Shown here one piece after another: positions 10,196 to 58,895 of a stretch of DNA of 64,000 bases. Under the pieces are notes generated by a model. That model worked only from the letters and a program-made list of their open reading frames with translations. It was not told the DNA's origin and did not search any database. Both the position numbers and the translations under genes were made by a program. The first letter of the stretch is position 1. Every line of letters begins with the position of its first letter. Origin of the DNA: an uncultured Candidatus Saccharibacteria bacterium (lineage in GTDB: Bacteria > Patescibacteriota > Minisyncoccia > Phycocordibacterales > XYD1-FULL-46-19); assembly GCA_964639285.1 (NCBI GenBank), contig CAZXCI010000003.1:31187-95186 (forward strand). Reading direction: 5' to 3'.

Positions 10196-10196
10196 C

Positions 10197-26139: not shown

Positions 26140-26144
26140 CTTAT

Positions 26145-26579: not shown

Positions 26580-26581
26580 TA

Positions 26582-28414: not shown

Positions 28415-28417
28415 ATC

Positions 28418-29086: not shown

Positions 29087-29196
29087 CCCGTTAGAAACAG
29101 ATCGCGATCAAAAAATCGCTCTCTCTTCTTAATTTATTTTTTAATAATATCGGATTCATGTTTTGTTTCAATAAGTTATTTGAGCGATCGCGGTTT
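29087..29196. repeat. Intergenic 110-bp element bounded by a perfect 11-bp inverted repeat (CCGTTAGAAAC ... GTTTCTAACGG) with internal GATCGCGATC palindromes and an AT-rich core carrying a minus-strand promoter-like TTGAAA-16-TATTAT
   Basis: Seen directly; fills the exact gap between the PrgI-like gene stop and the VirB4 N-domain ORF start. Confidence 0.4.
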
Positions 29197-29637: not shown

Positions 29638-30164
29638 TAAACAATGGGCTCACGATATGGATCCCTTGTCTTATTATCTCCTGTTTGAGGCGTAACGGCA
29701 ACTTCTTGTTTGGGGACATTGGCGATTGTTTTCATCTTATTGTCGAAAACTTGGGTTGCCGAAGGGCCAGGGGAAGCGGGAGTTGTCGCAGAACCCTCAA
29801 TTTTCTCTGGAGGAATTTGTTTTTGCTCCGTTTCTTTGACGGGTTCGGCTCGTTCCCGAGAAAGTTCCTCTAGTTCTCGACGAATCTTGGAGAAAATTTG
29901 TTGGTTGAGATCGTAGATTATCAAGTTGACAATATCTTGAGCTAGACCAGTTTTATCTTTTATTTTTTGGCTAAAGTCCGTTACTTTAGTTAGTCCAACC
30001 ATGGCTAGGGTGATTTCTTCAGCGATTCTTCCCAGTTGATCAACGTGTAAATTGTATTTTTTTCGTAATTCATCAGTGATAGCTCCCATATCGAGGTTGG
30101 CGATAACACTCTTTAGTTTTTCGGGCAGAGTGTCAAATTTTTTTCCGATTTCTTGTTTATTCAT
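29637..30164 (-). CDS. Hypothetical soluble protein (175 aa) of the T4SS-like operon
   Basis: Translationally coupled (1-nt overlap) to the PrgI-like gene; Pro/Thr-rich C-terminus. Confidence 0.45.
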   Translation of the reverse strand: MNKQEIGKKFDTLPEKLKSVIANLDMGAITDELRKKYNLHVDQLGRIAEEITLAMVGLTKVTDFSQKIKDKTGLAQDIVNLIIYDLNQQIFSKIRRELEELSRERAEPVKETEQKQIPPEKIEGSATTPASPGPSATQVFDNKMKTIANVPKQEVAVTPQTGDNKTRDPYREPIV

Positions 30165-30193
30165 TTTTCTATTTATCTTTTAGCCTTTTATAA

Positions 30194-32713
30194 TTAGAAA
30201 GCTGCTCCTCCTTGACGAGGATCGTTTAGGTATTGATAAGCGTTCTCGATGGTTCGGTCTGTCGGGTGAGGACCTGCACCACGATGGTGTTCGATCGCAG
30301 TTCTGATCGCTTGCCTCTCTGTATGTGGAACACCCATAGTTAAGGCACTTCGCAACTGTTCATTTGTTAGATAGGGGTATATGTCAGCATAAGCACCATT
30401 AAAGAGGTCGGTATTGGTGGCAAATTCGACAAATTCTGGCCCTGCAAGATTTCTTAGGGCATTTATTCTATTTATCTCATTAGGATTAGCAGCTGCCCAT
30501 GCTGGATTAAAGGAAGACATTGGGTGGGCAAGGGGCGTTCTCCCTGGGGTTCCAATATTTAATTCGGCCGTTGCCTGTTCTGTTCTGTTGACTCGACCCC
30601 TTTCTCTTGCCACTTCGCCCCTCGCTGTGGCTGTCGTCCTGGCATTTCTTTCAAAGGCCCCTCTTGCTGTTGCAACGTTAGCTCCTAGTGCCGATGGTAT
30701 TGGTGGTGCGCCGGCTACTCCTGGTGTGGGAGGAGCCATCCTGTTGACAAAAGCTTCAAGGTCCGCCTTTTCTCTGGCATTTAATCCTTCATAGAGATTA
30801 TTGAGCTGAGGTCCATCTAGGGAATTGAGATGGGCTAGTCTTTCGGCATCATTCCCTGGGTCGATTCCTCTCCAAGAGGCGGCGGATGTTTCTCTTGCTG
30901 CTCGTCCGCTTCCACTGGCTAGGAGTCTATTGGCCTCATTTCCTCGCCCTTGAGTTCTTAATTGCTGGACGACAGTGGCCTTGTCCTCTGGTGATAAGCT
31001 ACGGAAATAGGCATCTCTATCATCAGTTGACCTCAAACGTGACATATAAGAGGCTCTTTGGGCCCCAGCTTGTGGACCAGTGAAACCTGCGGCCCTCTGT
31101 TGTTGAGCTCTCTGTCTTTCTTCCACTCTTGTTCTGTAACCACGAGTGCCTGTGCCAAAGCCAGAGTTACCAATAGAACCAAGCGCTCGTCGGGCCCCCA
31201 TTGCTACTCGTCCAGTGATTGGTCTTGCCGACGAGGCCCAGGCCTGCATTCTCTGGCTCGTTGCTAGCCGGTTAGCAAGGTTACCGACGGTGTAACCTCC
31301 GGCTATACCGAGGGCTCCAAAACCGAGTCTCCTGCCCCAACTTCGGGCAGCCCCGGCTCCAGCGGCACCAAGGCTGTTTGCAATTAAGATACAGCCAAAG
31401 AGAAGGCCAACAATCATGAAATTCATAAAGACAAGGATCATTGGCCCCATAGACCCTAAACTGTTGGCGTCCTTGCCCAGTAGTCCTCCGATTCCATCCT
31501 TTAAGAAAATGAAAACTACATAAAGTGGAACGATTATTCCAGGGGCAACGAAGGCTTGATGAAGAAGTTTCTTAAGCCAGGTGTCAAAGTGATGTCTACC
31601 ATTTGGTATGACGTATAAGACAAAAGCAATGGGTGAAATAACATAGAGAAAAATAAGATAAACAGTTCTAATGAGAAACATAATTGACATAGCTATTAGG
31701 ACAAAACAAGAAACCAGAATAATAATAATGTTCCCGAAAGTTTGAATAATTATACCAGCGATACTTAAGCTCCCGATCACTGGGGCGAGAATAATGACTT
31801 CATTTCCATCAGCATCAGTCGCCTTAACCGGGATTGAAGGACCACCAAGAAACTGTTGGCTTAAATTTAGCTTACTAACTAATTGTCCGCCGATGCCAAG
31901 TTTGTTTCCCCCTGTCGCGATACCACCACCCATCTTGACGTAGAATTCATAAGCAACAACATTGGAGGCATCGATAATGATTCTAGTGAAGAAACCGCTG
32001 AAGTTGACAAGGAGAGCAATAATTATAACATTGACGATTAATTTCTTGGGATCACCTATTCCTTGGAGTTCAAAAATTGTCCCGATGGCGATATAGAGTA
32101 AGATGAAAACAAAACAGAGATTCCCGATGTCACGCAATACTGTCCAAGCGTTATCGATGCCGGAGTTTATTAACCAATCCTTTACGCTTAGGATAGAGAC
32201 TTTTATCGAGATATCTAGAATAGTTCCTGCGGCGACTAAGAGACTACCAAAGACCCAAGTTAAAGCATCGCCGATGGCGGCGAGGACTCCCCGGACACAC
32301 CCTCCGATATTTAAGGGGCTACAAGAATCATCTTGGTTTGCTTCAAGGTATTGTCTAGCTGATTCTTCGTCAACAAATTTTCCTCTAAATTCTCCAAATC
32401 CTCCTCCTGATATGAGAGCAGCTTCTCGCATGGCAGCTAAACCCTCTTTTTGGCTTTTCCCTACAGACAGATCGGGGAACCAGGTAAAACCGTAATTATG
32501 AAGGGTTGAAGAGACTCCTGATACAGGGTTCAGTATCATCGCCCCATAATGTAGCCCCATGTCCCAGAAATTACCAACCACTGATGTTATCGGTGCACTA
32601 TAACCTCCACCGATAGGAACGTTCTGGCTTAGGCTTATCAGGGGGAAGACTATTGCTAAGAGCAATACCCCTGAGATAAGAATATTTATTTTTAATTTCT
32701 TTCTTAAGCTCAT
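30194..32713 (-). CDS. VirB6/TrbL-like polytopic membrane protein (839 aa) with a long Ala/Arg/Gly-rich hydrophilic C-terminal tail
   Basis: N-terminal signal/TM, extracytoplasmic segment, at least 6 closely spaced TM helices in the middle third, then a roughly 380-aa low-complexity tail; architecture typical of TrbL/VirB6. Confidence 0.5.
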   Translation of the reverse strand: MSLRKKLKINILISGVLLLAIVFPLISLSQNVPIGGGYSAPITSVVGNFWDMGLHYGAMILNPVSGVSSTLHNYGFTWFPDLSVGKSQKEGLAAMREAALISGGGFGEFRGKFVDEESARQYLEANQDDSCSPLNIGGCVRGVLAAIGDALTWVFGSLLVAAGTILDISIKVSILSVKDWLINSGIDNAWTVLRDIGNLCFVFILLYIAIGTIFELQGIGDPKKLIVNVIIIALLVNFSGFFTRIIIDASNVVAYEFYVKMGGGIATGGNKLGIGGQLVSKLNLSQQFLGGPSIPVKATDADGNEVIILAPVIGSLSIAGIIIQTFGNIIIILVSCFVLIAMSIMFLIRTVYLIFLYVISPIAFVLYVIPNGRHHFDTWLKKLLHQAFVAPGIIVPLYVVFIFLKDGIGGLLGKDANSLGSMGPMILVFMNFMIVGLLFGCILIANSLGAAGAGAARSWGRRLGFGALGIAGGYTVGNLANRLATSQRMQAWASSARPITGRVAMGARRALGSIGNSGFGTGTRGYRTRVEERQRAQQQRAAGFTGPQAGAQRASYMSRLRSTDDRDAYFRSLSPEDKATVVQQLRTQGRGNEANRLLASGSGRAARETSAASWRGIDPGNDAERLAHLNSLDGPQLNNLYEGLNAREKADLEAFVNRMAPPTPGVAGAPPIPSALGANVATARGAFERNARTTATARGEVARERGRVNRTEQATAELNIGTPGRTPLAHPMSSFNPAWAAANPNEINRINALRNLAGPEFVEFATNTDLFNGAYADIYPYLTNEQLRSALTMGVPHTERQAIRTAIEHHRGAGPHPTDRTIENAYQYLNDPRQGGAAF

Positions 32714-35700
32714 ATACTCATTGTCTTCTGGGTTGTCCCTTTGTCATTGGTGCAATCTAATTTATATTCTCTGGCGGTGGTGGAAGCGGTGACAAGGAGG
32801 TTTGCTCGCTTGGTGAGACTATCCCCTTTTTTCTTAATGATCTCTTCGCCGTTGGCCCAATCATTTCCGGCTTTGCAGTCGGTGGCATTGGGTGAAGCCC
32901 AGTAGAGAAGATATTGGCCGTCTCCCTTATCTTTATCAGCAAAGTAGACGAGAGGCTTAATATTCTTATAAGCGTTGGCTAGGAATTCTATGAGTAATTC
33001 TAGTAGATTGAGACTGTCAGATGACGGAGAGTCTGATTCCCCGATTACTAAGTCGAGTAAACCGGTGAAATTTGACCATTCGGTGCCTCCTTCACCCCCA
33101 TCAGTGCCATCACCATCATCGCCTTCACCAGTTCCTCCCTCGGTTCCCCATTCGCTCGTATCGGGAGTATAAGTGCTAGCTTGTTCAATTTGGTCAGGAA
33201 TCCCGTCAGGGCCGACCATGCCCGGGCCAGGGGCCCCACCCCCGTCAGTCGTGGGGGTGAAGTTGTAGAGCTCACTCACGTTCGGCTCATTGCCCACGTT
33301 GATATCACCCATATCTTTGGCTGTCTCATATTGCGTTAGCCTGGTTCCCATTCCTTGAGCAGCTGTTTCTTTGACGATACTAGCAGGAGTTTGGGTTTCC
33401 CACATAATACATGTTTTGATTGAAGAATCTTCTGGGTCAGTAATCCATTTATTGCATTTTCGGACCGGAAGGAATCCTTGGCCAGCGATCATCTCATCTC
33501 GGACATTTGCTTCGGCTAAGGCCTGACTTCTTTTTAGTTGATCATTGGCGATTAGATAGCTACCATAACGGTTGTTTTGCGGTTGGAACATTTTGAGTAG
33601 GGCTGTCCAATATTCTGCGTCTGTGTAATCCTCAGAATCTGAGGCTTCTTCTTCCGCATAACTAGTTTTTATCCCAAAGAGGGAAGACAGTTTGTCTATC
33701 GGATTAGCCAAATAGCCTAAGAAAGGGATGTTTCTCAGTGTGGCAAGAATCGAAGTATTTTTTTCTTGAGCAACTATTTCTTCCGACTGATCACTGGCCT
33801 TGAACCCATTTTCTTCGGCGGAGCTGATTATTTTTATCTCTTTCTCTGTAAGCGTTGGCTGGAAAGGACGGCCAACTGAATCTATCTGCAAGGCATCGGC
33901 GATCTCATCTTTGTACATGTTCTTTGAGTTTCTAATGCGATCAAGGACAATTCTTTTTGCTTCATCTCTTGCCTGAGCGATTAAGACTCCTTCGTTGACG
34001 ACATAGAGAGGAGCACTATTCCCGTTGGAGTCTTGATATCCCTTTTTAATAAGCCCTTCTTCTCCCAACAGCGCCCCCTTATACTGTTCAATCACTGTTG
34101 AGGCGGCTCGTCTTACGGCGGCATCCTCAACCATTTTTTCTTCAAATCTCTGTTGGATACGTTTAACGGCGCGGATATGGGTACAAATTTGAACATTTAA
34201 CTCTCTTATCTCTCTTGTTCTTCTCTCGATACTATTGGTTAGACTCATTAGTTGGCCGTTTTGCTCGACAACCGGGACATAGAGACCACCGGTGACAGTG
34301 TCTGTCACGGTATCGACGACCGTGTCGACAACTCCCCCCTCGTCGAGGATCCCTTCTAGTCCGGGAATGCTGTTTATAATATCGCTAACACCTGGTAATT
34401 CGTCTAAGGCACCAGAGAAGTCATCGATAAGACCATCGACAGATAGTCCGTTGACCATATCACCCAATAAATCTTCTGGTAGGTCAGAGAGGACACTGTC
34501 AACAATTTCGGGGAGGCCGTTGTTTAGAATATTGCCCAAAGCCCCTTCGCCCAAGAGGGAGAAGACGGTCTCACTCACGTCTCCGTCTAAGAAACTCAGG
34601 ACTTGATTGAGCTGGCCACCACCCAACTGGCTGAAGATGTCATTGAGAGAACTCATGTTGAGATTGCCAAGGATAGAGTTAAGGTTACCTTCACTCAAGT
34701 TACCGAAGATGCCGTTGATGGCCCCATCTCCGAGTCGTCCGATAATTCTATCAAGACTCCCTGATGAGATGTTGTCTATGACGTCGTCAAAATCTTCTAG
34801 ATTATAAGTATTGTTGATGAAGTTATTTAGAGAAGTATCGTTCAGGTCATTGAGCAAACTTGTCAGTTGAGAGGAAGAGAATTGAGTGAGGATGGTCTCG
34901 TTTGACTCGTAAGATAGCCGTCCAATAATACCACCAAGATTACTAGAGGGGAGTTCATCAATAACTTCACTTAGATTACTAATGTTTAAGTTTTCGAGAA
35001 CATGATTGAGGCTATCATAAGGGAGTTTGGTGATAATATCTCGAATATTTATTGTGCTCTCTGTTGGAGAGGAGAGTATCCGATTGAATGAGTCATTAAT
35101 TTGCGATTCGTCGAGAGCCAAAAGTATTTCTGATAAATCGGTGGGGGTGGCCTTATCTAAGTCAACCGGTGTTGTCCCAAGGAGAACAGTCCTTACGGGG
35201 TCGGTCTTCTCAGCATGCACAAGGTTATGAAGAGATAAGTTGTCAGAAAGGAAGTTATCAATATAAGTAATTAGTTTGTCCAAAGGCGAATCAATGAGGG
35301 CTGTTTTTCCCCCGCCGACAGTTCCGCTGAGTTTTGCGTGCCAATGATCACCATATTTTGCACCTTTTTCTCGAGTGAAGACGTCTCCGTTATCGAGATA
35401 ATGTGTTTTAAACTTGGTTTTTTTAGATATTGTGGTGCTTACTGTGTGTTTTTCAATATACTCATTGAGTTTTGCGTTGTCGGGACTATAGTCTACGACG
35501 TTAGCACCGGGTTTATGTTCAACATGCCCAGCCTCTGTTCCAGAAGTTATCACTAGGCCACCTCCTATTTCCCTATTTATCTCGGCGGATCGGTCGATTG
35601 AATGTTGGGGTAATCCGCCGACACTGGTACAGCCACCTTTGACCGTGCGGAAGTCTCTTCCTGCACAATCAGCTTTGTTCACGGTTATTCCTTCCGCCGC

Positions 35701-36276
35701 AAGTTTGTCTCTTGTTTCTTGTTCGCCTCCCGCTGGCTCTCCGTAACCGTTCGCTCCTTCTCCGCCTTGCTCGTCTGAGTCAGGATTCTGAACGGGGTCG
35801 CTATCGCTGGGTTGGCCTTGGTCTCCTGCCCCATCCCCTTCCCCAGTTGTGCCATCTCCTGTTCCGCTCCCCGTCCCGGTCGTGCCAGAACTTCCACCGC
35901 TATAACCGCCAGCCTCAGCTTCACAACGGATCTCGTCTTCTTTTTGGAGTTTGGCCAACTCTTCGGCTTCTTTGTCTGTAGTTTTCTTATCTTTCCCTAC
36001 TCTTTCTTCTAGGGAGTCTTCTCCGCTATTGCCACTGGCGCCATTACTGCCACTATCTCCACCGTCGCCTCCACTGTTGATGATGATGTCGGCGACGTCA
36101 TTTATATCAATGTCGCCAACGCTATCACTTCCTCCACCACTGGGGAAACCCGTATCAGGGACAGGAAGGTTAGATATCTGAGCCCCAGTATTTTGGGCGA
36201 TTAAGAAAATAACTAAGGCTGAGAAAATGACCAGAGTTAGTTTCTTGAATATATTTTGTGAGGTTCTCGTGGTCAT
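32710..36276 (-). CDS. Giant secreted/surface protein (about 1190 aa) with acidic Gly/Asp/Ser-rich N- and C-terminal regions and a central array of degenerate Leu/Asn/Ser-rich repeats
   Basis: Signal peptide after the internal Met (MTTRTSQNIFKKLTLVIFSALVIFLIAQNTGAQ); the ORF opens at 36321. Repeats of the form S/N-L-N-x-x-L-x-x-L-x-(I/L)-x-x (LNHVLENLNISNLSEVIDEL, LGGIIGRLSYESNETIL, LDRIIGRLGDGAINGIFGNLSEGNLNSILGNLNMSSLNDIFSQLGGGQLNQVLSFL). 4-nt overlap with the VirB6-like gene. Confidence 0.6.
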   Translation of the reverse strand: MTTRTSQNIFKKLTLVIFSALVIFLIAQNTGAQISNLPVPDTGFPSGGGSDSVGDIDINDVADIIINSGGDGGDSGSNGASGNSGEDSLEERVGKDKKTTDKEAEELAKLQKEDEIRCEAEAGGYSGGSSGTTGTGSGTGDGTTGEGDGAGDQGQPSDSDPVQNPDSDEQGGEGANGYGEPAGGEQETRDKLAAEGITVNKADCAGRDFRTVKGGCTSVGGLPQHSIDRSAEINREIGGGLVITSGTEAGHVEHKPGANVVDYSPDNAKLNEYIEKHTVSTTISKKTKFKTHYLDNGDVFTREKGAKYGDHWHAKLSGTVGGGKTALIDSPLDKLITYIDNFLSDNLSLHNLVHAEKTDPVRTVLLGTTPVDLDKATPTDLSEILLALDESQINDSFNRILSSPTESTINIRDIITKLPYDSLNHVLENLNISNLSEVIDELPSSNLGGIIGRLSYESNETILTQFSSSQLTSLLNDLNDTSLNNFINNTYNLEDFDDVIDNISSGSLDRIIGRLGDGAINGIFGNLSEGNLNSILGNLNMSSLNDIFSQLGGGQLNQVLSFLDGDVSETVFSLLGEGALGNILNNGLPEIVDSVLSDLPEDLLGDMVNGLSVDGLIDDFSGALDELPGVSDIINSIPGLEGILDEGGVVDTVVDTVTDTVTGGLYVPVVEQNGQLMSLTNSIERRTREIRELNVQICTHIRAVKRIQQRFEEKMVEDAAVRRAASTVIEQYKGALLGEEGLIKKGYQDSNGNSAPLYVVNEGVLIAQARDEAKRIVLDRIRNSKNMYKDEIADALQIDSVGRPFQPTLTEKEIKIISSAEENGFKASDQSEEIVAQEKNTSILATLRNIPFLGYLANPIDKLSSLFGIKTSYAEEEASDSEDYTDAEYWTALLKMFQPQNNRYGSYLIANDQLKRSQALAEANVRDEMIAGQGFLPVRKCNKWITDPEDSSIKTCIMWETQTPASIVKETAAQGMGTRLTQYETAKDMGDINVGNEPNVSELYNFTPTTDGGGAPGPGMVGPDGIPDQIEQASTYTPDTSEWGTEGGTGEGDDGDGTDGGEGGTEWSNFTGLLDLVIGESDSPSSDSLNLLELLIEFLANAYKNIKPLVYFADKDKGDGQYLLYWASPNATDCKAGNDWANGEEIIKKKGDSLTKRANLLVTASTTAREYKLDCTNDKGTTQKTMSI

Positions 36277-36280
36277 GTTA

Positions 36281-36973
36281 TTAATTACTGACAAAAATCT
36301 GGATTTTTTCGTTATCAGCAAAAGTTACCTTATTTAAAACAAAGAATTGGTTTAGCGTTTCGATAGATTTGATGAAGTCTGAATAATCATGGTTGAAGGT
36401 CTGGCTATTTTCCAGAGCGAGAGTCGGCTGAGACAAGGCTTGTTCCATATTCTTAAGACGACTGACAAGCAGATTTATTTGACTGACGATTTTGAAATGG
36501 CGGCTGGCCAATTCCTTGGGAACGGGAATTTTTGTCAGACTTAGAGCTACCTGCTCGTGGAGAATCCTAGAGAAGGTTACTGATTTGATGAACGAACCGT
36601 CATTTTTATCAATGGCCGACAGCACGGCCCTGGCCTCACTCTCTCTCCTCCCGCTTAGGGGTTTGAAGGTCTCGGCCAGACGAAGTCCGTAGGTTCGGAA
36701 GTCTTGCGGACTGCTTACTCCAGTAGTCGAACTAGCGATGATCGGTTTCTCGGCCAATTGACTGATCGAGACATTTGTTTTATTGGAGGAGAGTTCCTGT
36801 CGAGAGAGGTCCTCGAGGTTCTTATGTTTTTCTAAAATGTCGCTTAGATAAGCTTGTCGTTTTTTTTCTTCTCTGGATTTTTTTTGATGGCCGACAAACC
36901 ATAAAGAGACAATGGTAAGTACCACTAAAACAATCACTAGCCGTATCACATTTTTGCTTGGTAAATGGGCCAA
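36281..36973 (-). CDS. Membrane-anchored hypothetical protein (230 aa), first gene of the T4SS-like operon
   Basis: N-terminal TM (LVIVLVVLTIVSLWFV), coiled-coil-like remainder. Confidence 0.45.
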   Translation of the reverse strand: MAHLPSKNVIRLVIVLVVLTIVSLWFVGHQKKSREEKKRQAYLSDILEKHKNLEDLSRQELSSNKTNVSISQLAEKPIIASSTTGVSSPQDFRTYGLRLAETFKPLSGRRESEARAVLSAIDKNDGSFIKSVTFSRILHEQVALSLTKIPVPKELASRHFKIVSQINLLVSRLKNMEQALSQPTLALENSQTFNHDYSDFIKSIETLNQFFVLNKVTFADNEKIQIFVSN

Positions 36974-37058
36974 CTGTACTCAATATTATATAACGGTCAG
37001 CTACTTTATGCACTGAAAAAAGGTGGATAAATAAACAATTTTAATCTATTATTTAGGG

Positions 37059-38096
37059 ATGAGAAATTTTTTTTTAATTTTTCTAATTTTGTTGATGGTT
37101 CTTCTGTCTTTCCCTACTCCCTCTTCCGCTCAAGTTCTGCCTTTTGGTGGGAAAATCCTCTATACAGACTGGTGTTCTTGTTCAATGAATTTACTCATTT
37201 ATTATTTGCGGGTTCGCGATTTCATGCCTCAACTTCTCTCTTATCGGGTCGGAGGGAGTAAGCTGTATTCTTATTATAATCTTACCGAGGGGATGGAGAT
37301 CTTGGGGACGACCGTTTCTCCTGATGTTTGTTTGACAGGATCACATTGCCATCCTCATCCTCTTGTCGCGGCCATGGGAACTCCTTGGCTAATTAGTATT
37401 GTCGGGACTTCTGACCCTTCTCATCGAGCCTCTGGCTCTGGCTCTGGCTCCGGTTCGGGCTCAGGTACAGGTACAGGGACAGACACGGGGACAACTGGCC
37501 CCACTTCGACCACGACCCCAGACGGAGCTCCTCCTTGTTCTAGTGATGCTGACCGTCTCGCTTCTAGTTATATTATGGCCAATGAGGGTTGGAGTAATTC
37601 CTGTTATCCCGATGCCGGAGGACGCTCGGTTGGAGTTGGCCACTTCATCACTCCTGGGGACGGGATTGATTGTAGCCGTCCTCTCTCAGATGCTGAAGTC
37701 CAAGAGCTCTTTGAAGAAGATTATCCTCAATATCGGGCTGATGCTGAAGCTTCAGCCGCTCGTAACGGTGTCGATTGGGATGCTTTGTCGCCAGAGCGAC
37801 AGGCGGTGCTCACTGATATGGCTTACAATATGGGAGCTGAAGGGGGAGGGGGGCTGAACGGCTTCACTGAGATGTGGGGGGCGATAAGACAAGCTCAATC
37901 AACCAGTGGGACCCAAAGTCAGCATCATTGGAATACGGCTGGTGATGAAATTATCGAGACTACGACACCTTATGGACAAGGTGCTCGAGCCGGGCGAAAC
38001 AGGACAATAATGAGGACGAATGGTAGTTCGACCATCAATCGCCAAGTTAATTCCGATCCTCACGCTAGAAATTATTGCGCTGAAGAGACAACTTAG
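37059..38096 (+). CDS. Secreted GH24 (phage/T4-type) lysozyme-like muramidase with an N-terminal Cys/His-containing domain and a (SG)n/(TG)n/Thr-rich linker; candidate VirB1/PrgK-type cell-wall hydrolase
   Basis: Signal peptide; linker SGSGSGSGSGSGTGTGTDTGTTGPTSTTTPDG; C-terminal domain ANEGWSNSCYPDAGGRSVGVGHFIT...LSDAEVQELFEEDY...NGVDWDALSPERQAVLTDMAYNMGAEGGGGLNGFTEMW parallels T4 lysozyme (EGYYTIGIGHLLT...KDEAEKLFNQD...[31 protein letters not shown]). Confidence 0.65.
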   Translation: MRNFFLIFLILLMVLLSFPTPSSAQVLPFGGKILYTDWCSCSMNLLIYYLRVRDFMPQLLSYRVGGSKLYSYYNLTEGMEILGTTVSPDVCLTGSHCHPHPLVAAMGTPWLISIVGTSDPSHRASGSGSGSGSGSGTGTGTDTGTTGPTSTTTPDGAPPCSSDADRLASSYIMANEGWSNSCYPDAGGRSVGVGHFITPGDGIDCSRPLSDAEVQELFEEDYPQYRADAEASAARNGVDWDALSPERQAVLTDMAYNMGAEGGGGLNGFTEMWGAIRQAQSTSGTQSQHHWNTAGDEIIETTTPYGQGARAGRNRTIMRTNGSSTINRQVNSDPHARNYCAEETT

Positions 38097-38497
38097 GGCA
38101 AGACCCCAGCGTTTATTTCTAAAGCAAAACTAATTTTTTGGGGTGGGTAGATTACTTGTGGGTAAGAGCTTGGTTCAAAATTCTTTTCTATCCCGATAAT
38201 TTTTTTGTTTTCGTCAAGCCAAACAATATCAATAGGGAAATTCATGTCTTTCATCCAGAAACCAGGCTGGCTTGGTTGATCGAAGACGAAGAGCAGGCCG
38301 TGATCTCTGGGGAGACTCTTCCGGCCAGAGAGACCGAGAGTCTTCTTTGCTTTGGTATTGGCCACTTCGGCGGTGAAGGTCCTTGAGCCGATTTTTATTT
38401 TAGTAGTCTGATAATTGTCGAAACTATGTTGTCTCAGACCAAGACAAAGCCCGATAAGAAAAATAACGACAAAACTCCAAAGAATTATTTTTTTCAT
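38093..38497 (-). CDS. DUF192 (COG1430) family secreted protein
   Basis: AEVANTKAKKTLGLSGRKSLPRDHGLLFVFDQPSQPGFWMKDMNFPIDIVWLDENKKIIGI...ALEINAG matches the DUF192 signature. Confidence 0.6.
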   Translation of the reverse strand: MKKIILWSFVVIFLIGLCLGLRQHSFDNYQTTKIKIGSRTFTAEVANTKAKKTLGLSGRKSLPRDHGLLFVFDQPSQPGFWMKDMNFPIDIVWLDENKKIIGIEKNFEPSSYPQVIYPPQKISFALEINAGVLP

Positions 38498-38501
38498 CTT
38501 T

Positions 38502-39326
38502 TTATTCTTTATTTATTTGTTTATCATTTATCTCTTTTGCCAAACATTCCCAATTCTCAAGACTTAAGTTTTCGGCCCGGGCTCTTGGTGGAACTTGGCA
38601 TGCCTGGAGAGTGGCCTCTTCTACTTCGAGATTACTCTTGAGTAGTTTTCGCTTTTGTTTGAAGCCTTTTTTCAAAATTTCAAAAAATGTTTTTTCTTTG
38701 ATCTCGCTAAAGAAATCACGAGAAATATTTTCGATTAGGAGAATAGCTGAATCAACTTTTGGTTTGGGTTCGAAGGCTCCCGCCGGGACAGTTTTAACAT
38801 ATTTGGGGGTACCATAAACTTTGACCGAGATCGAGAGGAGAGATTCTTTTTTATCGCTGGCGATAATTCTCTTGGCCACCTCCTTCTGTATCATCAGGAC
38901 CATTCGGCCTGGCTGGCATTCTTCTTCGCTCAAGAATTTCCTGATTACTTGGCCGGTGATGTAGTAAGGAATATTGGCCACTAATTTGTAATTTTTCTCC
39001 GAGAAAAGTTTCGAGGCGTTGACTGTCAGGATATCGCCGTGAGCGATAAACATTTTTTTGTCATTTATTTCAGGCGCAAATTCTTCAAGTAAGTGATCGA
39101 GGAGTTCATCGTCCTTCTCGACGGCGAGAACCTGAGCCCCTGTCTCGATTAGGGCGCGAGTGAGGGCGCCTCTTCCTGGTCCAATCTCTAGGACTTCCTC
39201 CCCCTCCTTCAAGTCAGCTGTCTTGATGATTTCTCTAATTGCACTTTCTGATTTTAGCCAATTTTGCCCTAGGGATTTCTTGGCTCGGGGCTTCGTCTCT
39301 AAGTTTTTATTTTCTTCTTTCTCCAT
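38502..39326 (-). CDS. rsmA: 16S rRNA (adenine1518/1519-N6)-dimethyltransferase
   Basis: LGQNWLKSESAIREI, SAM-binding LEIGPGRGALT, NIPY motif. Confidence 0.85.
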   Translation of the reverse strand: MEKEENKNLETKPRAKKSLGQNWLKSESAIREIIKTADLKEGEEVLEIGPGRGALTRALIETGAQVLAVEKDDELLDHLLEEFAPEINDKKMFIAHGDILTVNASKLFSEKNYKLVANIPYYITGQVIRKFLSEEECQPGRMVLMIQKEVAKRIIASDKKESLLSISVKVYGTPKYVKTVPAGAFEPKPKVDSAILLIENISRDFFSEIKEKTFFEILKKGFKQKRKLLKSNLEVEEATLQACQVPPRARAENLSLENWECLAKEINDKQINKE

Positions 39327-39434
39327 TTCTCTAATTATGCCCTAAATAATCTTTTTTAGACAGAGGCTTGTTAAACTCCTGTCCTTTGCGATATAATCGA
39401 GGTATTAAAAGTCTTAATTTAAAATATAAATAAT

Positions 39435-39647
39435 ATGTTAAATGATATGGAAGGAACTCCTAACTTAGAAAATCCGGCTGAAATACAGAAAGTTATCGAG
39501 AGGACAAAGGCCGAGATTGATGAAATTTGCACCGAGTTAGAAGGAAAGAACAAAGAGCAAGAAGTTCTCTTGGCGTCTCTCAAAAAGGCGACCACCGAAT
39601 TAGCTAGGCTCATAAGCGTCTTAGAAGGGTTTCTCCCTTCTGCCTAG
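39435..39647 (+). CDS. Hypothetical 70-aa coiled-coil protein
   Basis: Clean ORF exactly filling the gap between two minus-strand genes; no family recognised. Confidence 0.3.
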   Translation: MLNDMEGTPNLENPAEIQKVIERTKAEIDEICTELEGKNKEQEVLLASLKKATTELARLISVLEGFLPSA

Positions 39648-39653
39648 AGCTTG

Positions 39654-41570
39654 TCAGACTATCGTCCAGAGGCCGGATTCGGCCTCAATGAGGTTCTCCT
39701 CGATATCGAAGATAAATTCGGACGGCATATTGACGCGACGTTGACCGAAAACCTGGCGAGTTTGAGCGTAAGAAAGATAGAGCTTGTGGCGGGCTCGAGT
39801 AATCGCCACGTAGAAAAGTCGGCGTTCTTCCTCGCCGTCTTTTTTGCTATCGCTTAAGCCGGCGTGCGGGAAGAGGTCCTGTTCGAGACCAGTGACGAAG
39901 ACATAATCAAATTCAAGCCCTTTGGCTGCGTGGACAGTCATTAATTTTACTCCAACCTTCGGCTGGTCGAGCTCGTCTTGGTCTGTTGCCAGAGCAATCT
40001 CGGTCATCATGGCCTCTATCGCCTCTTCTGGCTCTAAGTTGTCATATTTGGTGGCGACACTGACTAATTCTTTAATATTTTCTAATCTTTCTAATCCTTC
40101 TTCGCCGTCTTCCCTTAGACTTTTTTCTAGGCCGGTTTGGGTGAGGATAAATTTTATTAACTCAGAGGGTTTATTACTTAGAGCAAAATCTCCAATCTCG
40201 CTCACGATTTTCTTAAATTGGGAGATTTTCTGTCTCATCGTCGCTGGCAATTCTTCGAATTGTCCGCTGGCCAATTTAAGGAGCGTTATTTTACCAATGC
40301 CTCGAGCGGGTATATTGATGACACGTTTTGCACTTTCCCAATCATCAGGGTTAAGACTAACTCTAATGAAGGCGACGATATCTTTGACCTCTTTGCGTTC
40401 GAAGAAGCGGGTGCCGAGTACTTGGTAGGGCACATTTTCTCGAAGGCAAGCCTCTTCAAGCACTCGGGATTGGAAATTGGCTCGATATAATACAGCAATC
40501 TCGTTTGGGTGTGTTTCTTCCCCGATCAATTCCTTAGCTTTCTGGGCGACAAAACCAGCTTCATCCCCCTCCTCCATACCGGTATAGAGTCCGATTTTGG
40601 CCCCGGCTTTATTTTTAGTAAAAAGTTTTTTCTCGTGACGTTTTTTGTTTTTTTCAATGATTTGGTTAGCGGCAGTGAGGATTGTTTGGGTCGAGCGATA
40701 ATTTTCTTCAAGCAGAACAATTTTGGCCTTAGGATAATCTTTCTCAAAATGAAGAAGGTTGGTGAAGTCGGCTCCGCGCCAGCCGTAGATAGATTGGTCC
40801 ATGTCCCCTACCACACAGATATTCTTTTCTTTGTGGGCTAGAAGATTGGTTAGTTCGTACTGGATAACGTTGGTGTCTTGGTACTCATCGACGTGGATAT
40901 AGTGGAAACGGTCTTGGTAATGAGCGAGAACGTCAGGATTCTTTTTAAGAAGTTCCACGGTCTTTAGCAGGAGATCGTCGAAGTCGAGGGCTTTGTTGGT
41001 CCTTAATAATTCTTCATATCTGGCCCAGACTTGGCTAATAACTCTGGCAAAAGGATTATTCGAATTACTATTCTGGAATTCTTGCTGGCTAATGTTGTCT
41101 CCTTTTTGGCGAGAAATAGTGTTGAGCACCTTCCTTGGCTCATATCTCTTCTCGTCAAGACTCATGGCACGCATTGCCTCTTTAACCTTAGAGATTGAGT
41201 CGTCACGGTCGAGAATTGAGAAGTGGTGAGAGAGCCCAAGTCGGTCGCCATGGTGTCTTAATATATAGACTCCGAGAGAGTGGAAGGTGGTTACCATGGG
41301 TTCAACCCTTACTCGCCCCTCCAAGAGTTTAGTTACTCGTTCGCGCATTTCGCGCGCCGCCTTGTTGGTGAAGGTGATGGCCAAGATATTCTCGGGTTTA
41401 ATCCCTGACTCAATAAGGTGCAAGATGCGATAGGTGATGGTTCGTGTTTTGCCCGCGCCAGCACCAGCAATGACTAATAAGGGCCCGTCTTGATGCAAGA
41501 CAGCCTCCTTCTGTGGTGGATTTAATTGGTCAAGATAAGACATAAAATGTTTTAATTGATAGACGAGCAA
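39654..41570 (-). CDS. pcrA: ATP-dependent DNA helicase, UvrD/PcrA/Rep family (638 aa)
   Basis: LNPPQKEAVLHQDGPLLVIAGAGAGKTRTITYRILHLI helicase motif I, motifs II-VI (VDEYQDTN, TFHSLG ... VHAAKGLEFD). Confidence 0.85.
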   Translation of the reverse strand: MLVYQLKHFMSYLDQLNPPQKEAVLHQDGPLLVIAGAGAGKTRTITYRILHLIESGIKPENILAITFTNKAAREMRERVTKLLEGRVRVEPMVTTFHSLGVYILRHHGDRLGLSHHFSILDRDDSISKVKEAMRAMSLDEKRYEPRKVLNTISRQKGDNISQQEFQNSNSNNPFARVISQVWARYEELLRTNKALDFDDLLLKTVELLKKNPDVLAHYQDRFHYIHVDEYQDTNVIQYELTNLLAHKEKNICVVGDMDQSIYGWRGADFTNLLHFEKDYPKAKIVLLEENYRSTQTILTAANQIIEKNKKRHEKKLFTKNKAGAKIGLYTGMEEGDEAGFVAQKAKELIGEETHPNEIAVLYRANFQSRVLEEACLRENVPYQVLGTRFFERKEVKDIVAFIRVSLNPDDWESAKRVINIPARGIGKITLLKLASGQFEELPATMRQKISQFKKIVSEIGDFALSNKPSELIKFILTQTGLEKSLREDGEEGLERLENIKELVSVATKYDNLEPEEAIEAMMTEIALATDQDELDQPKVGVKLMTVHAAKGLEFDYVFVTGLEQDLFPHAGLSDSKKDGEEERRLFYVAITRARHKLYLSYAQTRQVFGQRRVNMPSEFIFDIEENLIEAESGLWTIV

Positions 41571-41597
41571 CTTATATCATAATATAATTAAAGACAT

Positions 41598-42029
41598 ATG
41601 AATAATCTTGAAAGTGAGATCGCTGAATTACAAAAAATGATCGAGGCCAAGCGCGATCAATTAGAGAAGGAGGTAGGCATTGTTGAAGAGAAGGAGTTGG
41701 TTCGTCAGTCGGTGCGAGAAATGTTTCTCGATACGACGACACCGCCTCTTTCTTCGTCGGCCAACCCTTTGCCTGCTCAAAGTCCCACCCCGGTTAGCAC
41801 GCCTTCGGTCAAAGTTCAGCCAAATTCTGCTAGCGCTAGTTACTTAGATTATCTCGATGCCGACACGACAGAGAAGATCAACCACTTGATCGAAGAGATT
41901 CCGGCTAAGGGTGTAGCTCTTGTCATTGACGAGGTCGCGGCACAGGAGCCTTTTGTCATCGACGCTTTCCATGATGCCCTTGTTGACAAGCTCTACGATG
42001 AGCTCAAGGCTCGTGGTTTAGTAAAATAA
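41598..42029 (+). CDS. Hypothetical protein (143 aa), 8 nt upstream of the coupling-ATPase gene
   Basis: N-terminal coiled coil, Pro/Ser-rich linker, C-terminal alpha-helical part; no family recognised. Confidence 0.45.
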   Translation: MNNLESEIAELQKMIEAKRDQLEKEVGIVEEKELVRQSVREMFLDTTTPPLSSSANPLPAQSPTPVSTPSVKVQPNSASASYLDYLDADTTEKINHLIEEIPAKGVALVIDEVAAQEPFVIDAFHDALVDKLYDELKARGLVK

Positions 42030-42036
42030 ATTAATA

Positions 42037-44400
42037 ATGCCCCCCCATCTAATTTTAAGTTTTGCAATTATTGTTGTCGTGGTCGCTGTGGCCGGTATTG
42101 TTCTTTGGTATAAGCGGAAGCATCGCCAATGGGAAAGTCTTAACCTCAAGATTCTTTCAATTAAGATTCCTCGGACCGGAAGCGAAGACAAAGTAGATTT
42201 TCTGAAGGAGATAAACTTGACCGAACAACTTTTTAATTCACTCTCTTCAATTAAACAGCCTTTTGTTTTTGAGCTGTCGGTTAAGAATGTGGGCGAAGAA
42301 ATTAATTTTTTCCTCTCGGTCCCTCGCTCGGTTGTTGATTTTGCTAAGCGGGAGATTCAAGGTCTCTTCTTAGACGCCAAGGTTGAGGAAGTTCCCGACT
42401 ACACCATCTTCCAACCGCAAGGGACGGCCGTGGCTGGTTATCTCGCCCTAGACAAAGAATATTTTTTACCGATCGGCACATACCAAGAGGCTCAAGCTGA
42501 TATTTTTGCCCCGATCCTAAGTACTTTATCTCGGGTTAATGAACGTGATGAGGGGGCTTCGGTTCAGATTGTCGTGCGCCCAGCTCCTGAGAAAACGAAA
42601 AAGACTCTCATTTGGGTCGCTGAAAAACTTAAAAGCGGGGCCAAGTTTTCCGATGTTTCTCGTCTTGGAAGCCTAAGTTTAAAAGATGTTAGTCAGGAGT
42701 GGAGTGGTAAACCAAAACCAAAGGAGGGGGAAGCCGGTCCCCCGCCCAAGATCGATGAAGAGATGGTCAAGGCGGTGGGACTTAAGCTGGCCAAACCGCT
42801 CTTCGAGGTTAATGTTCGTCTTGTTACCTCCTCGGTTGATGTTAACCGAGCGGAGGATATGTTTGTGGCTCTCTCGAGTGCTTTTTCTAAATTTTCTTCA
42901 CCGATTCGCAATGGTTTCAAAATTATCAAACCAAAGAAAAATCGTCACCTTGTCTTCAATTATGTCTTCCGTGATTTCAATCGTTATCAGACGATTGTTC
43001 TCAACACTGAAGAATTGGCCAGCATCTTCCACCTTCCAACTCACACTTCTGATGTCCCTAATGTCTCTTGGCTCCGGGCTAAGGAAGCCGCCCCTCCAGA
43101 AGTTATGCCCAAGGAAGGTCTCAAGTTGGGGGATAGTGTCTTCCGGGGAGCAATTAAAGAGGTTCGTTTGACCGACGAGGACCGTCGACGTCATCTCTAT
43201 GTTGTTGGGCAGACTGGTACTGGTAAATCTGTCTTGATTCAAAATTTGGCAATGCAAGACATGATTAATAATAAGGGTCTTTGCGTTATTGACCCTCATG
43301 GCGAGACAATTGAGAAGATCCTGGCTTACGTTCCTAAAGATCGGATTGACGATATTATTGTCTTCGACCCCGGTGATCGGGAGCGACCAATTGGGCTTAA
43401 TATGCTCGAATATGATTTTAACAAACCAGAAGAAAAAACCTTTATCGTTAATGAACTTCTGTCTATTTTTAATCAACTATTTGATAAGCAGGCGCTTGGA
43501 CCAATGTTTGAACGATATATGCGCGGAGCTCTCAATCTCTTAATGGACGATATGGTCAATGAACCGGCGACTTTGGTGGAAGTTCCCCGCGTTTTTACCG
43601 ATGACGAGTTTCGCAAGCGCAAATTAGCCCGCTCGCAAAATCAGCAAATCATCGATTTTTGGACAAAGGAAGTGCCTAAGACCTCGGGTGATCAGAGTCT
43701 TGGTAATTTTGCTCCCTACGTTTCGTCCAAATTTGATAATCTTATTTCCAATTCCTATATTCGCCCCATTATTGGACAACCCAAATCTTCTTTTGACTTC
43801 CGCCAAGCTATGGATGAAGGGAAGATTATTCTGGTAAACTTGTCTAAGGGTAAAGTTGGTGATCTCTCCTCATCTCTATTGGGCATGGTGATCGTAGGTA
43901 AAATTCTTAAAGCTGCTCTTTCTCGCGTTGATATTGCTGATGAGCGTTCTCGTCGGGATTTCTATCTCTATATTGATGAGTTCCAGAACTATACGACCGA
44001 ATCAATTGCTACTATTCTCTCTGAGGCCCGTAAATATCGGCTCAACCTTATTGTCGCCCATCAATTTATTGCTCAACTCAAAGACAACATTCGCGAGGCT
44101 GTATTCGGCAATGTGGGTAACATGATCTCCTTCCGAGTTGGCCCGCCTGACGCTGAGACCCTGGTTAAACATTTCGGTCCGGTCTTCAATGAGAAGGATC
44201 TCATTAGTATTGAGAATCTCAATGCTTTTACCAAGATTCTTGTCAATGGTGAACCGTCCAAACCTTTCAATATGAAGATTACTTGGCCCACGGGTGGCTC
44301 AGCCGTCGTTCGAGATGGTCTTAAGGAGCTCTCTCGCCTTCGTTTCGGCCAAGATCTCGACCAAATTGAGGAAGATATCCTTAAACGCCTGAGAGATTAA
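42037..44400 (+). CDS. Membrane-anchored type IV secretion coupling-protein-like ATPase (VirD4/TraG/TraD- or FtsK-like)
   Basis: N-terminal TM helix; Walker A HLYVVGQTGTGKSVLIQN; Walker B LYIDEFQNY; NLIVAHQ; overall 787-aa architecture typical of T4CPs. Confidence 0.55.
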   Translation: MPPHLILSFAIIVVVVAVAGIVLWYKRKHRQWESLNLKILSIKIPRTGSEDKVDFLKEINLTEQLFNSLSSIKQPFVFELSVKNVGEEINFFLSVPRSVVDFAKREIQGLFLDAKVEEVPDYTIFQPQGTAVAGYLALDKEYFLPIGTYQEAQADIFAPILSTLSRVNERDEGASVQIVVRPAPEKTKKTLIWVAEKLKSGAKFSDVSRLGSLSLKDVSQEWSGKPKPKEGEAGPPPKIDEEMVKAVGLKLAKPLFEVNVRLVTSSVDVNRAEDMFVALSSAFSKFSSPIRNGFKIIKPKKNRHLVFNYVFRDFNRYQTIVLNTEELASIFHLPTHTSDVPNVSWLRAKEAAPPEVMPKEGLKLGDSVFRGAIKEVRLTDEDRRRHLYVVGQTGTGKSVLIQNLAMQDMINNKGLCVIDPHGETIEKILAYVPKDRIDDIIVFDPGDRERPIGLNMLEYDFNKPEEKTFIVNELLSIFNQLFDKQALGPMFERYMRGALNLLMDDMVNEPATLVEVPRVFTDDEFRKRKLARSQNQQIIDFWTKEVPKTSGDQSLGNFAPYVSSKFDNLISNSYIRPIIGQPKSSFDFRQAMDEGKIILVNLSKGKVGDLSSSLLGMVIVGKILKAALSRVDIADERSRRDFYLYIDEFQNYTTESIATILSEARKYRLNLIVAHQFIAQLKDNIREAVFGNVGNMISFRVGPPDAETLVKHFGPVFNEKDLISIENLNAFTKILVNGEPSKPFNMKITWPTGGSAVVRDGLKELSRLRFGQDLDQIEEDILKRLRD

Positions 44401-44472
44401 GGTGCTTTTTCTAGATCTTGCCGAGGGGATAACTTGATTGAAAAAAGGCTCTTTTTGGGCTAAGATGCGAAG

Positions 44473-45519
44473 GTGAAAAAGATCTGGATAGTCCCACTTT
44501 TTTTGTCTTTATTGCTAGTGGCGCAGACGGCCGAAGGAGGCATTTTCTCCTCTATTGTCGGCTTTTTTAGTCCTTCGGTGAGCAAAGTTAGCGCCAATGT
44601 CCTCCAAGAGGAAAACGAACAAACTGAGACAAATTCTCAAAATATGGACCTCTTAGAACCAGTGCTCGGGGAAACTTCGACGAGTTCCCCTCGTGACGAT
44701 GCAGAGATGTCCATTGTCAGTGGTGGTGCCGTTCTCCCTGAATCTGGGCCTTTAGGGACGATGGCTGATATTAAGGATACTCCAATGCCCTCAGATCTTA
44801 TTAGTGTCTATATTGTCCGTCCTGGAGACACCATTGGGACAATCGCTAAGATGTATAATGTCTCAGTCAATACTATTCGTTGGACTAACGAGCTTAAGAA
44901 AAGTGATGTTATTAAGCCAGGGGACAGCCTTATCATTCTTCCGATTACAGGTATCCAACACACAGTCAAGAAGGGTGATACAATTAAGAGCTTGGCCAAA
45001 AAATATGGGGGGAATTTTGAAGAAATTCTTGCTTATAATGATCTTGACCCCGCCAAGGGCTTGGTGGTTGGCGATACTATTATTATTCCTGACGGGGAGG
45101 AAAGTACGATCATCTCTTCGACTAAACCAGTGGCAAAGTCCCCATCTAAGTACAGTGGTCCAAGTTCCTCTGGTTACTTTATGAAGCCAGTTACTAATTA
45201 TCGCCGAACTCAAGGTCTCCATGGTTATCTTCACAATGCTATTGATATGGCCGCGTCTCTTGGCACCCCTATTTATGCGGCCGCTGAGGGTAAAGTTATC
45301 ATTGCTAAAGGTAGCGGTTGGAATAGTGGCTATGGTAATTATGTTGTTATCTCGCACCCTAACGGCACTCAGACTCTCTATGCTCATCTGAGTAAGTTAA
45401 ATGTCAGTGTTGGTCAACGCGTCGACAAGGGTGATAATATCGGAGGCATGGGTAGTACGGGCAAATCAACTGGTTCTCACCTTCACTTCGAGATTCGTGG
45501 CGCTTCGAATCCTTTCTGA
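44473..45519 (+). CDS. Secreted peptidoglycan endopeptidase: two LysM domains plus a C-terminal M23 (LytM) metallopeptidase domain
   Basis: Signal peptide; LysM repeats (YIVRPGDTIGTIAKMYNVSVNTIRWTN; HTVKKGDTIKSLAKKYGGNFEEILAYN); M23 motifs HNAIDMAA...YGNYVVISHPNGTQTLYAHL...GSTGKSTGSHLHFEI. Confidence 0.8.
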   Translation: MKKIWIVPLFLSLLLVAQTAEGGIFSSIVGFFSPSVSKVSANVLQEENEQTETNSQNMDLLEPVLGETSTSSPRDDAEMSIVSGGAVLPESGPLGTMADIKDTPMPSDLISVYIVRPGDTIGTIAKMYNVSVNTIRWTNELKKSDVIKPGDSLIILPITGIQHTVKKGDTIKSLAKKYGGNFEEILAYNDLDPAKGLVVGDTIIIPDGEESTIISSTKPVAKSPSKYSGPSSSGYFMKPVTNYRRTQGLHGYLHNAIDMAASLGTPIYAAAEGKVIIAKGSGWNSGYGNYVVISHPNGTQTLYAHLSKLNVSVGQRVDKGDNIGGMGSTGKSTGSHLHFEIRGASNPF

Positions 45520-48816: not shown

Positions 48817-48821
48817 ATTTG

Positions 48822-58891: not shown

Positions 58892-58895
58892 CAAA

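Follow-up and report, generated by a model that had tools for sequence, protein, structure and literature searches.

Type IV secretion systems (T4SSs) of Patescibacteria are the first reported to be essential to the survival of the bacterium that carries them (PMC12857230; PMC10633639). Quinonero-Coronel et al. (2025) described them as MPF-FATA-like, often located near dnaA and KsgA and mostly without a relaxase, and reported an origin-proximal T4SS locus for Paceibacteria (PMC12102498). In that survey canonical VirB1 was poorly linked to virB4 in most classes, Paceibacteria excepted; proteins of the LysM plus Peptidase_M23 type were counted as VirB1 homologues in Paceibacteria, and other glycosidases may fill the VirB1 role (PMC12102498). 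Two essential proteins are coded in the T4SS cluster of Southlakia epibionticum: SEML1_0006, with two lysozyme-like domains and a cysteine protease, and SEML1_0007, a protein of 1113 residues with a Hedgehog/DD-peptidase domain (PMC10633639). In Brucella, SagA is a T4-lysozyme-like autolysin of the T4SS that uses a Glu/Asp/Thr triad and makes peptidoglycan pores for the system (PMC8334348). Here we analyze a gene from an uncultured Candidatus Saccharibacteria bacterium (contig CAZXCI010000003.1), in a stretch of 64,000 nucleotides that we call the window. The gene lies beside a T4SS-like operon and codes for a T4-lysozyme-type (GH24) domain behind a predicted OB-fold domain. We lean toward the view that its product is a wall hydrolase dedicated to the T4SS, comparable to VirB1, PrgK or SagA and positioned by the OB module.

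The gene is an open reading frame (ORF) of 345 codons with an ATG start on the plus strand, exactly at the position, 37059..38096, given by an earlier, sequence-only reading of the window; the codon coordinates were checked. No identical protein occurs in a collection of 15 billion sequences. Residues 1-24 are predicted to form a Sec signal peptide, 25-120 an N-domain, 121-158 a linker and 159-345 a C-domain, with these coordinates:

37024..37052, plus strand: promoter-like site TGGATA-17-TATTAT in the gap before the gene (consensus scan, 9 of 12 matches)
37059..37130, plus strand: residues 1-24, predicted from sequence features to be a Sec signal peptide cleaved after SSA
37131..37418, plus strand: N-domain, residues 25-120, a predicted OB-fold with motifs PFGG, CxC, LG, C..C and VGTS and cysteines C39, C41, C91 and C97
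37419..37532, plus strand: low-complexity Ser/Gly/Thr/Pro linker, residues 121-158 (composition G11 T10 S8 P3)
37533..38093, plus strand: GH24 (T4-lysozyme-type) domain, residues 159-345, from profile, Pfam and fold matches
37584-37586, 37611-37613 and 37626-37628, plus strand: codons of the predicted catalytic residues Glu176, Asp185 and Ser190

A slot conserved beside the type IV secretion operon

As had been noticed from the sequence alone, the gene diverges from a T4SS-like operon on the minus strand, and the two are separated by an intergenic gap of 85 bp. The operon codes for a T4SS pilin, two unknown genes, a VirB4-like ATPase (TraG P-loop/AAA_10), a TraC-like protein and PrgI/VirB3, together with orf175, an 839-residue VirB6-like protein, a 1203-residue protein with MgtE_N repeats and orf230, a protein of 230 residues. 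The promoter-like site in the gap is weak, as the consensus scan returned 5 sites where 2.3 were expected from shuffled sequences. In the explanation that we favor, the gene belongs to the Patescibacteria (MPF-FATA-like) type IV secretion locus. The main features around it are:

24726..36973, minus strand: divergent T4SS-like operon (Pfam scan, precomputed Pfam of orthologues, synteny)
38093..45519, mixed strands: conserved downstream block of DUF192 (minus), KsgA (minus), UvrD/PcrA (minus), orf143 (plus), a VirD4-like gene (plus) and orf348 (plus)
42037..44400, plus strand: VirD4-like coupling protein (Pfam scan, synteny)
44473-45519, plus strand: orf348, the next gene after the VirD4-like one and orthologous (8e-144) to a LysM plus Peptidase_M23 protein in locus L001
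16907..19195: class A penicillin-binding protein, for the cell's own peptidoglycan synthesis

The same slot holds an OB-domain gene in 14 further distinct loci, which is every related locus with enough flanking DNA (L001, with L002-L004 as copies of the same gene context; L005-L012; L014; L016; L018; L019; and L021). Among these loci, whole-protein identity falls as low as 38 % and profile E-values weaken to about 2e-6. On the divergent side the slot is bordered by orf230, the big protein, the VirB6-like gene, orf175, PrgI, the TraC-like gene and VirB4, and on the downstream side by DUF192 (not always present), KsgA, UvrD, orf143, the VirD4-like gene and the LysM-M23 gene. The OB domain occurs once in the window and once per locus in the profile scans of L001-L013. 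The synteny sample is biased toward N-terminal and stand-alone members of the OB family: the only C-terminal-type member with context is P0140 (L019), whose gene adjoins KsgA, and P0072, P0054 and P0043 were left out because their contigs are too short for context. Adjacency of the slot gene to the T4SS cluster is conserved across genomes, and the T4SS association proposed from the sequence alone proved stronger than claimed, with synteny kept in every related locus examined. Because the OB module is the constant element of the slot, we regard it as the part of the protein that is tied to the T4SS. At L005 (9833-10861), the annotated protein P0003 (286 residues) is a truncated gene call; the ORF runs upstream to 342 residues and then includes a signal peptide and a full OB domain.

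The locus also lies close to a set of replication genes. dnaA, dnaN and yidC are found at 19.4-23.5 kb, with dnaA and dnaN 15 kb from the lysozyme gene. Beside them, between 20001 and 24000, the GC content dips to 0.325 and the cumulative GC skew reaches its minimum. This interval is probably the replication origin, which would place the T4SS-like locus within about 3-25 kb of oriC.

The two domains and what joins them

The C-domain is homologous to GH24 enzymes. Four full-length homologues of the protein were found, at 44-57 % identity, and all four carry a precomputed PF00959 annotation. In our own scan, PF00959 was matched by four of the five family members (best 3.3e-9), and the five-sequence family profile matched T4 lysozyme at 9.5e-11. 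An AlphaFold2 model of the domain, made from the five-sequence alignment, has block-mean values of the predicted local distance difference test (pLDDT) mostly between 63 and 94. Compared with the PDB by Foldseek, this model recovers the two-lobed alpha/beta fold of T4 lysozyme; its top matches are all T4 lysozymes, with a probability of 1.00 and target template modeling (TM) scores of 0.6-0.68. These results support the GH24 identity put forward in the sequence-only reading. The query on its own behaved differently from its family: it reached a phrog_7 endolysin at 1.7e-9 and T4 lysozyme chains in the PDB at about 4e-3, and it had no Pfam match even at E<=10, so that the single-sequence test proposed with that reading would have been a false negative. 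No SLT, CHAP or NlpC/P60 domain was matched in the query in Pfam, NCBIfam or the phrog library.

In the alignment, Glu11, Asp20 and Thr26 of T4 lysozyme fall on conserved columns, and their equivalents in the query are Glu176, Asp185 and Ser190. Eight residues separate Glu176 from Asp185, as in T4 lysozyme, and both are invariant among the five sequences. The third position differs, since in the query Ser190 follows Asp185 after four residues whereas most homologues have a Thr after five; the Glu-8-Asp spacing named in the sequence-only reading is present, and the GH24 assignment withstands the refuting condition set out there. Among 17 non-identical relatives, Glu is kept in 17, Asp in 16 and Thr or Ser at the third position in 15. 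The sole Asp exception looks like a local misalignment, and at the third position most relatives have Thr, with Asp in P0004 and Ala in P0015. The exchange of Ser for Thr26 is chemically conservative, and a Ser may stand in for Thr in positioning the water. The two other motifs named earlier, GxGHxxT and DAE...F, are present and align with their T4 lysozyme counterparts (GVGHFIT with GIGHLLT, and SDAEVQELFEEDY with TKDEAEKLFNQDV). Two cysteines, C160 and C340, are invariant in the five-sequence family. We consider the GH24 assignment secure for homology and active-site conservation, from which muramidase activity would be expected. The domain is an ordinary member of a known family, and homologues already bear this label in public databases; P0035, from a Paceibacterota metagenome-assembled genome (MAG) and of the same architecture, is named 'GH24 family phage-related lysozyme' by NCBI and JGI.

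A further observation concerns the catalytic loop. The loop of the query, YPDAGGRSVGVGHFI(T/V)PGDG (37611-37660), is almost identical to that of the slot genes in L007 and L008, variants that code for 546-residue proteins of Vogelbacteria and 'Saccharibacteria'. Overall identity between these proteins and the query is only about 50 %, and the near-identical loop thus hints at recombination or exchange of GH24 between lineages.

Unlike the lysozyme domain, the N-domain belongs to an unannotated family. A profile of residues 25-120 first retrieved stand-alone proteins of 122-144 residues, consisting of a signal peptide and the N-domain. When 1.84 billion cluster representatives were then searched exhaustively with HMMER, 342 clusters were retrieved at E<=1e-3, 34 of them at E<=1e-10 (clusters defined at 50 % identity). 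The domain stands alone behind a signal peptide in 88 of 154 sequences, is C-terminal in a larger protein in 35, N-terminal and followed by an extension in 19, and internal in 12. Family members share PFGG right after the signal peptide, CxC, LG, C-x5-C and a terminal VGTS. Where other Pfam domains accompany it, they are PG_binding_1 (five members), NlpC/P60, 3D, TIG, a VirB5-type T4SS family (PF07996) and TraW_N. An AlphaFold2 model from a 68-sequence alignment (mean pLDDT 94.7, predicted TM score 0.86) is a small beta-barrel with one short helix, and on structure comparison we confidently predict an OB-fold.

Searches by sequence gave nothing comparable. None of 68 diverse family members had a significant Pfam match, or any match at E<=1; NCBIfam returned nothing for the query, the precomputed Pfam field is '-' for P0005-P0007, and the family profile met PDB sequences at E>=1 throughout. 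The viral structure library BFVD gave generic OB matches only, which were non-significant. These results give no support to homology with T4 gp5 or with any other viral protein for the OB domain, the gp5-type entries in BFVD having E of about 0.2. A role as a nucleic-acid-binding OB likewise found no support, as the domain is about neutral in charge (net -1 in the query; family mean +1.7, sd 3.5). A recent review of T4SSs mentions OB-folds only as cytoplasmic relaxosome auxiliaries (PMC12857230), and the main text of PMC12102498 mentions neither an OB-fold protein nor the slot. The OB-fold family is unannotated, and the family and its fixed slot are new.

The cysteines of the N-domain invite two interpretations. 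The sequence-only reading had drawn attention to its Cys and His residues (CSCS and HCHPHP). Both motifs are present and the cysteines are a family-wide feature, the four being found in 96, 91, 99 and 77 % of members, but the histidines of HCHPHP recur in just 10-11 of 154 members and the predicted fold is an OB-fold rather than a metal-type motif. The number of cysteines is even in 144 of 150 OB domains (insert columns included). Moreover, Cys4 is missing from all ten domains that have lost Cys2, whereas Cys1 and Cys3 are retained in them (Fisher p=2e-13, without correction for phylogeny). Joint loss and even counts fit two disulfides better than a four-ligand metal site, and a Cys/His metal site was rejected on these grounds together with the rarity of the histidines. 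The pairing suggested by the pattern of loss makes disulfides C39-C91 and C41-C97 probable.

The protein is probably exported through its Sec signal peptide. Its N terminus, MRNFFLIFLILLMVLLSFPTPSSA/QVLPFGG (the slash marks the predicted cleavage), has a charged n-region, a 15-residue hydrophobic core (Kyte-Doolittle values up to 3.7) and a cleavage-type site, SSA/Q, with small residues at -3 and -1. A hydropathy scan of the 345 residues detected no second hydrophobic segment. A signal-peptide-like segment ending just before PFGG was present in all 25 OB-family members inspected. Between the two domains, residues 121-158 read SHRA(SG)6 TGTG TD TG TTGPTSTTTPDGAPP; the linker had been described as (SG)6(TG)3, which is exact for the first repeat and near but inexact for the second, actually (TG)2-TD-TG. 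Linker length and sequence or composition differ among homologues, and the segment has a pLDDT of about 25-30 in the AlphaFold2 model. It is coded in part by two adjoining hexanucleotide arrays, CTCTGG x5.5 and CAGGTA x3.5, at 37430-37482 (Tandem Repeats Finder, period 6). Slippage in these arrays could shift the length of the linker.

Module exchange and rival explanations

While the OB domain is constant in the slot, what follows it is not. The slot genes fall into these types:

L001-L004, L014, L016, L021: OB domain and nothing else
The window, L005, L006, L012: OB domain, linker and GH24
L007-L010: OB domain, a 150-residue module and GH24, about 546 residues in total
L011: OB domain and the 150-residue module alone

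In L011, from a Vogelbacteria MAG, the GH24 domain is found elsewhere in the locus, at residues 205-353 (PF00959, 3.2e-6) of a 1353-residue protein (9386-13447, plus strand). This protein is the counterpart of the window's 1203-residue protein, and the slot gene of L011 has the OB domain and the module without GH24, an arrangement that we read from the domain matches as hopping of GH24 between two proteins of the T4SS locus. The 150-residue module is itself shared in the same way. It corresponds to residues ~195-333 of the 1203-residue protein (32710..36321, minus strand; module at 35323-35739, minus strand). It is found behind the OB domain in L007-L011 and seven representative clusters, is attached to T4SS pilins (PF18895) in other proteins from the candidate phyla radiation (CPR), and occurs as a stand-alone protein of about 160 residues in Streptomyces, Micromonospora and basidiomycete fungi. 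The module had no match in Pfam or among PDB sequences, and its relatives carry no informative annotation except the pilin fusions. Its invariant motifs, TxGxExGH-x2-H-x7-D and HxH, make a zinc peptidase of the LAS/M15 (Hedgehog/DD-peptidase) type plausible, on the motif (H-x7-D ... HxH) as the sole basis. The Hedgehog/DD-peptidase domain of Southlakia SEML1_0007 adds to the plausibility of this putative assignment. We conclude that modules of wall-hydrolase type are cargo that moves among the proteins of the T4SS locus, and that the OB domain is the constant, T4SS-linked element.

Two loci show a related arrangement in separate genes. Right before the stand-alone slot OB gene, L016 (7018-8333) and L021 (7246-8324) have a separate gene with PG_binding_1 and TIG matches, which are confident in L021 and faint in L016. 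PG_binding_1 is fused to the OB domain in five other members, and the two configurations form a split/fused link of the Rosetta-stone type.

A T4SS-dedicated hydrolase could work as follows. The preprotein would be exported by Sec and the signal peptide removed after Ala24, and the OB-fold (25-120) would be oxidized to its two-disulfide form, C39-C91 and C41-C97. The OB module would then, most likely, dock the protein on an extracellular T4SS component, on wall glycan or on both, and the flexible tether of about 38 residues would limit the radius swept by the GH24 domain. There, the muramidase would cut MurNAc-beta-1,4-GlcNAc bonds, with Glu176 as general acid and Asp185 and Ser190 positioning the attacking water. 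Local lysis of this kind may open the sacculus for the channel or pilus, as with VirB1, PrgK/TraG and Brucella SagA.

Several observations weigh against this proposal. The query by itself falls short of Pfam, and it combines Ser190 in place of Thr26 with an Asp-Ser loop one residue shorter than in T4 lysozyme and its closest homologues. Close relatives (L001-L004, L014, L016 and L021) keep the OB protein without a lysozyme; GH24 is thus dispensable for the role of the slot protein, and a wall hydrolase need not come from the slot gene. The window also codes for a LysM/M23 protein beside VirD4 and for the putative peptidase module in the 1203-residue protein, and either of these could cover the VirB1 role. 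Finally, the gene order next to housekeeping genes near oriC could in part be frozen order rather than a sign of function.

The variable presence of GH24 among close relatives would also be expected of an accessory, host-adaptive function. Patescibacteria are largely epibionts, and in Southlakia growth on hosts requires the T4SS (PMC10633639; PMC12857230); on a rival reading, the exported enzyme would cut the peptidoglycan of the host where the two cells touch, rather than its own wall, and so serve attachment, the release of nutrients or the passage of the T4SS pilus. The long flexible tether would let the catalytic domain reach past the cell's own wall, and surface-type domains, TIG and PG_binding_1 among them, often accompany the OB family. 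Several points speak for a nearer target. The N-terminal Sec signal indicates that the slot protein is no T4SS substrate, and a cell that makes its own peptidoglycan (class A penicillin-binding protein, 16907..19195) exposes its own wall to an exported muramidase before any other. Furthermore, no candidate immunity gene tracks with GH24: DUF192 was considered as an immunity protein and rejected, as its presence comes and goes independently of GH24 across loci. We judge a host-directed lytic factor to be unlikely, although it is the strongest of the alternatives to a T4SS-dedicated hydrolase.

Less likely still is a general role as an autolysin in wall turnover, growth or division, or an origin by domestication of a phage endolysin; the place beside the T4SS would then be a by-product of origin-proximal gene order. 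The flanks of the gene do include the housekeeping genes KsgA, UvrD and DUF192, with dnaA and dnaN 15 kb away, and neighbors of this type are generally abundant near virB4 (PMC12102498); in Southlakia, the place between RsmA and UvrD is taken by an RpfB-like wall enzyme that is unrelated and non-essential (PMC10633639). The best library matches of the C-domain are phage endolysins (phrog_7), but Pfam scans of the window found no phage genes in the flanks. Further points against this reading are that the same GH24 domain sits inside a large T4SS-operon protein in L011, that T4SS pilins carry the 150-residue module as a fusion, that OB-family members are joined to VirB5-type and TraW_N domains, and that in every locus examined the gene and the T4SS operon diverge from a common promoter region. 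A prophage endolysin as such was rejected, given the lack of phage genes nearby and the conserved chromosomal synteny. We give very little credence to the idea that the lysozyme domain is a non-catalytic, glycan-binding module in a structural or adhesive part of a surface apparatus. The Ser of the query, the Asp of P0004 and the Ala of P0015 at the Thr26 position would suit it, as would the shortened Asp-Ser loop and a query below the Pfam thresholds; against this, the Glu is invariant and the Asp nearly so in 17 relatives, conservation extends to the GxGH and substrate-cleft motifs, and Ser could chemically replace Thr for positioning water.

The locus supplies a concrete GH24 candidate for the VirB1-type glycosidase role. 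It also brings to light an OB-fold family, conserved but so far unannotated, whose members mark a fixed slot and carry swappable wall-hydrolase modules. A bolder extension, which we offer tentatively and hold to be less probable than the proposal it builds on, is that the OB-fold is a near-universal extracellular subunit of the Paceibacteria-type T4SS, carrying interchangeable wall-degrading modules that in epibionts would breach the host wall at the contact site. The OB domain may in that case be, for example, a wall-spanning or pilus/tip adaptor, and the modules may include GH24, the H..D/HxH module, 3D and NlpC/P60. Were this true, a unit of OB adaptor plus enzyme would let the T4SS exchange material, and it would offer a direct handle on how CPR bacteria parasitize their hosts. 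The locus offers three entry points: what the OB domain binds, which substrates the lysozyme accepts, and whether there is co-occurrence with the VirB4 clade.

As for the organism, the closest reference genomes are labeled Candidatus Paceibacterota, Vogelbacteria or 'Patescibacteria group', with two auto-labeled Saccharibacteria MAGs, at identities of 38-51 %. The pairing of Saccharibacteria with Actinobacteria hosts that the sequence-only reading implied is not supported by these neighbors, none of which exceeds 51 % identity. Elsewhere in the window, six tRNA genes are clustered at 57683-59753 and three more lie at 270, 4525 and 63814; an Rfam scan of the window found no rRNA or other Rfam family besides the tRNAs. 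A strong AT-skew anomaly of -0.43 at 47563-50132 (minus strand) arises because two adjacent genes there code for coiled-coil-like proteins rich in Glu, Lys, Arg and Gln, of 417 and 436 residues.

Comparison with known systems

The catalytic domain resembles T4 lysozyme in fold (target TM about 0.65), profile homology (9.5e-11), Glu-8-Asp spacing, the GxGH motif and the D/E-x-x-x-L-F helix. It differs in an identity of about 20 %, in the Ser at the Thr26 position with a catalytic loop one residue shorter, and in a C-terminal extension of about 25 residues and the conserved C160 and C340. The protein as a whole is also predicted to have a signal peptide, an N-terminal OB-fold and a tether, and its gene is chromosomal, not phage-borne. 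The order of an OB-fold followed by a GH24-type lysozyme is that of the T4 gp5 tail lysozyme, and the gp5 lysozyme is a weak PDB match (7cn7, E=0.0075). However, the OB domains give no homology signal (none of 68 family members matches Gp5_OB, and gp5-type structures in BFVD stay at E of about 0.2), and the query is predicted to be Sec-exported, with a disulfide-rich OB and no beta-helix needle. From the beginning of the lysozyme domain to the C terminus there are 187 residues, and thus no C-terminal beta-helix. The resemblance to gp5 is most likely convergent.

Brucella abortus SagA and Salmonella TtsA are T4-lysozyme-type muramidases with a Glu/Asp/Thr triad that serve secretion systems, and our protein shares the T4-lysozyme-type domain with them. 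The likeness to SagA is drawn from the literature, SagA not being among the sequence or fold matches listed; SagA also differs in its diderm origin, a C-terminal helical peptidoglycan-binding domain and the lack of an OB-fold. PrgK of pCF10, TraG of pIP501 and VirB1 are similarly coded alongside T4SS genes; they work outside the membrane and often consist of several modules, and the glycosidase plus peptidase of the monoderm PrgK/TraG type (PMC12102498) finds a parallel in the OB, module and GH24 of L007-L010. Those proteins use GH23 SLT and CHAP or NlpC/P60 domains and a membrane anchor, whereas ours has GH24, a predicted cleavable signal peptide and an OB-fold. As its catalytic domain is GH24 with no SLT or CHAP match, we regard the protein as an analogue of VirB1 rather than a member of its family.

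In Southlakia, SEML1_0006 has lysozyme-like domains of the PF18013/PF01832 type and a cysteine protease rather than GH24, the gene order differs, and the supplement rows retrieved annotate no OB-fold in SEML1_0006 or SEML1_0007. The two proteins nevertheless share with the locus described here lysozyme-like and DD-peptidase-like domains coded inside a Patescibacteria T4SS cluster, and SEML1_0007, at about 1100 residues with a peptidase domain, resembles the 1203-residue protein of the window.

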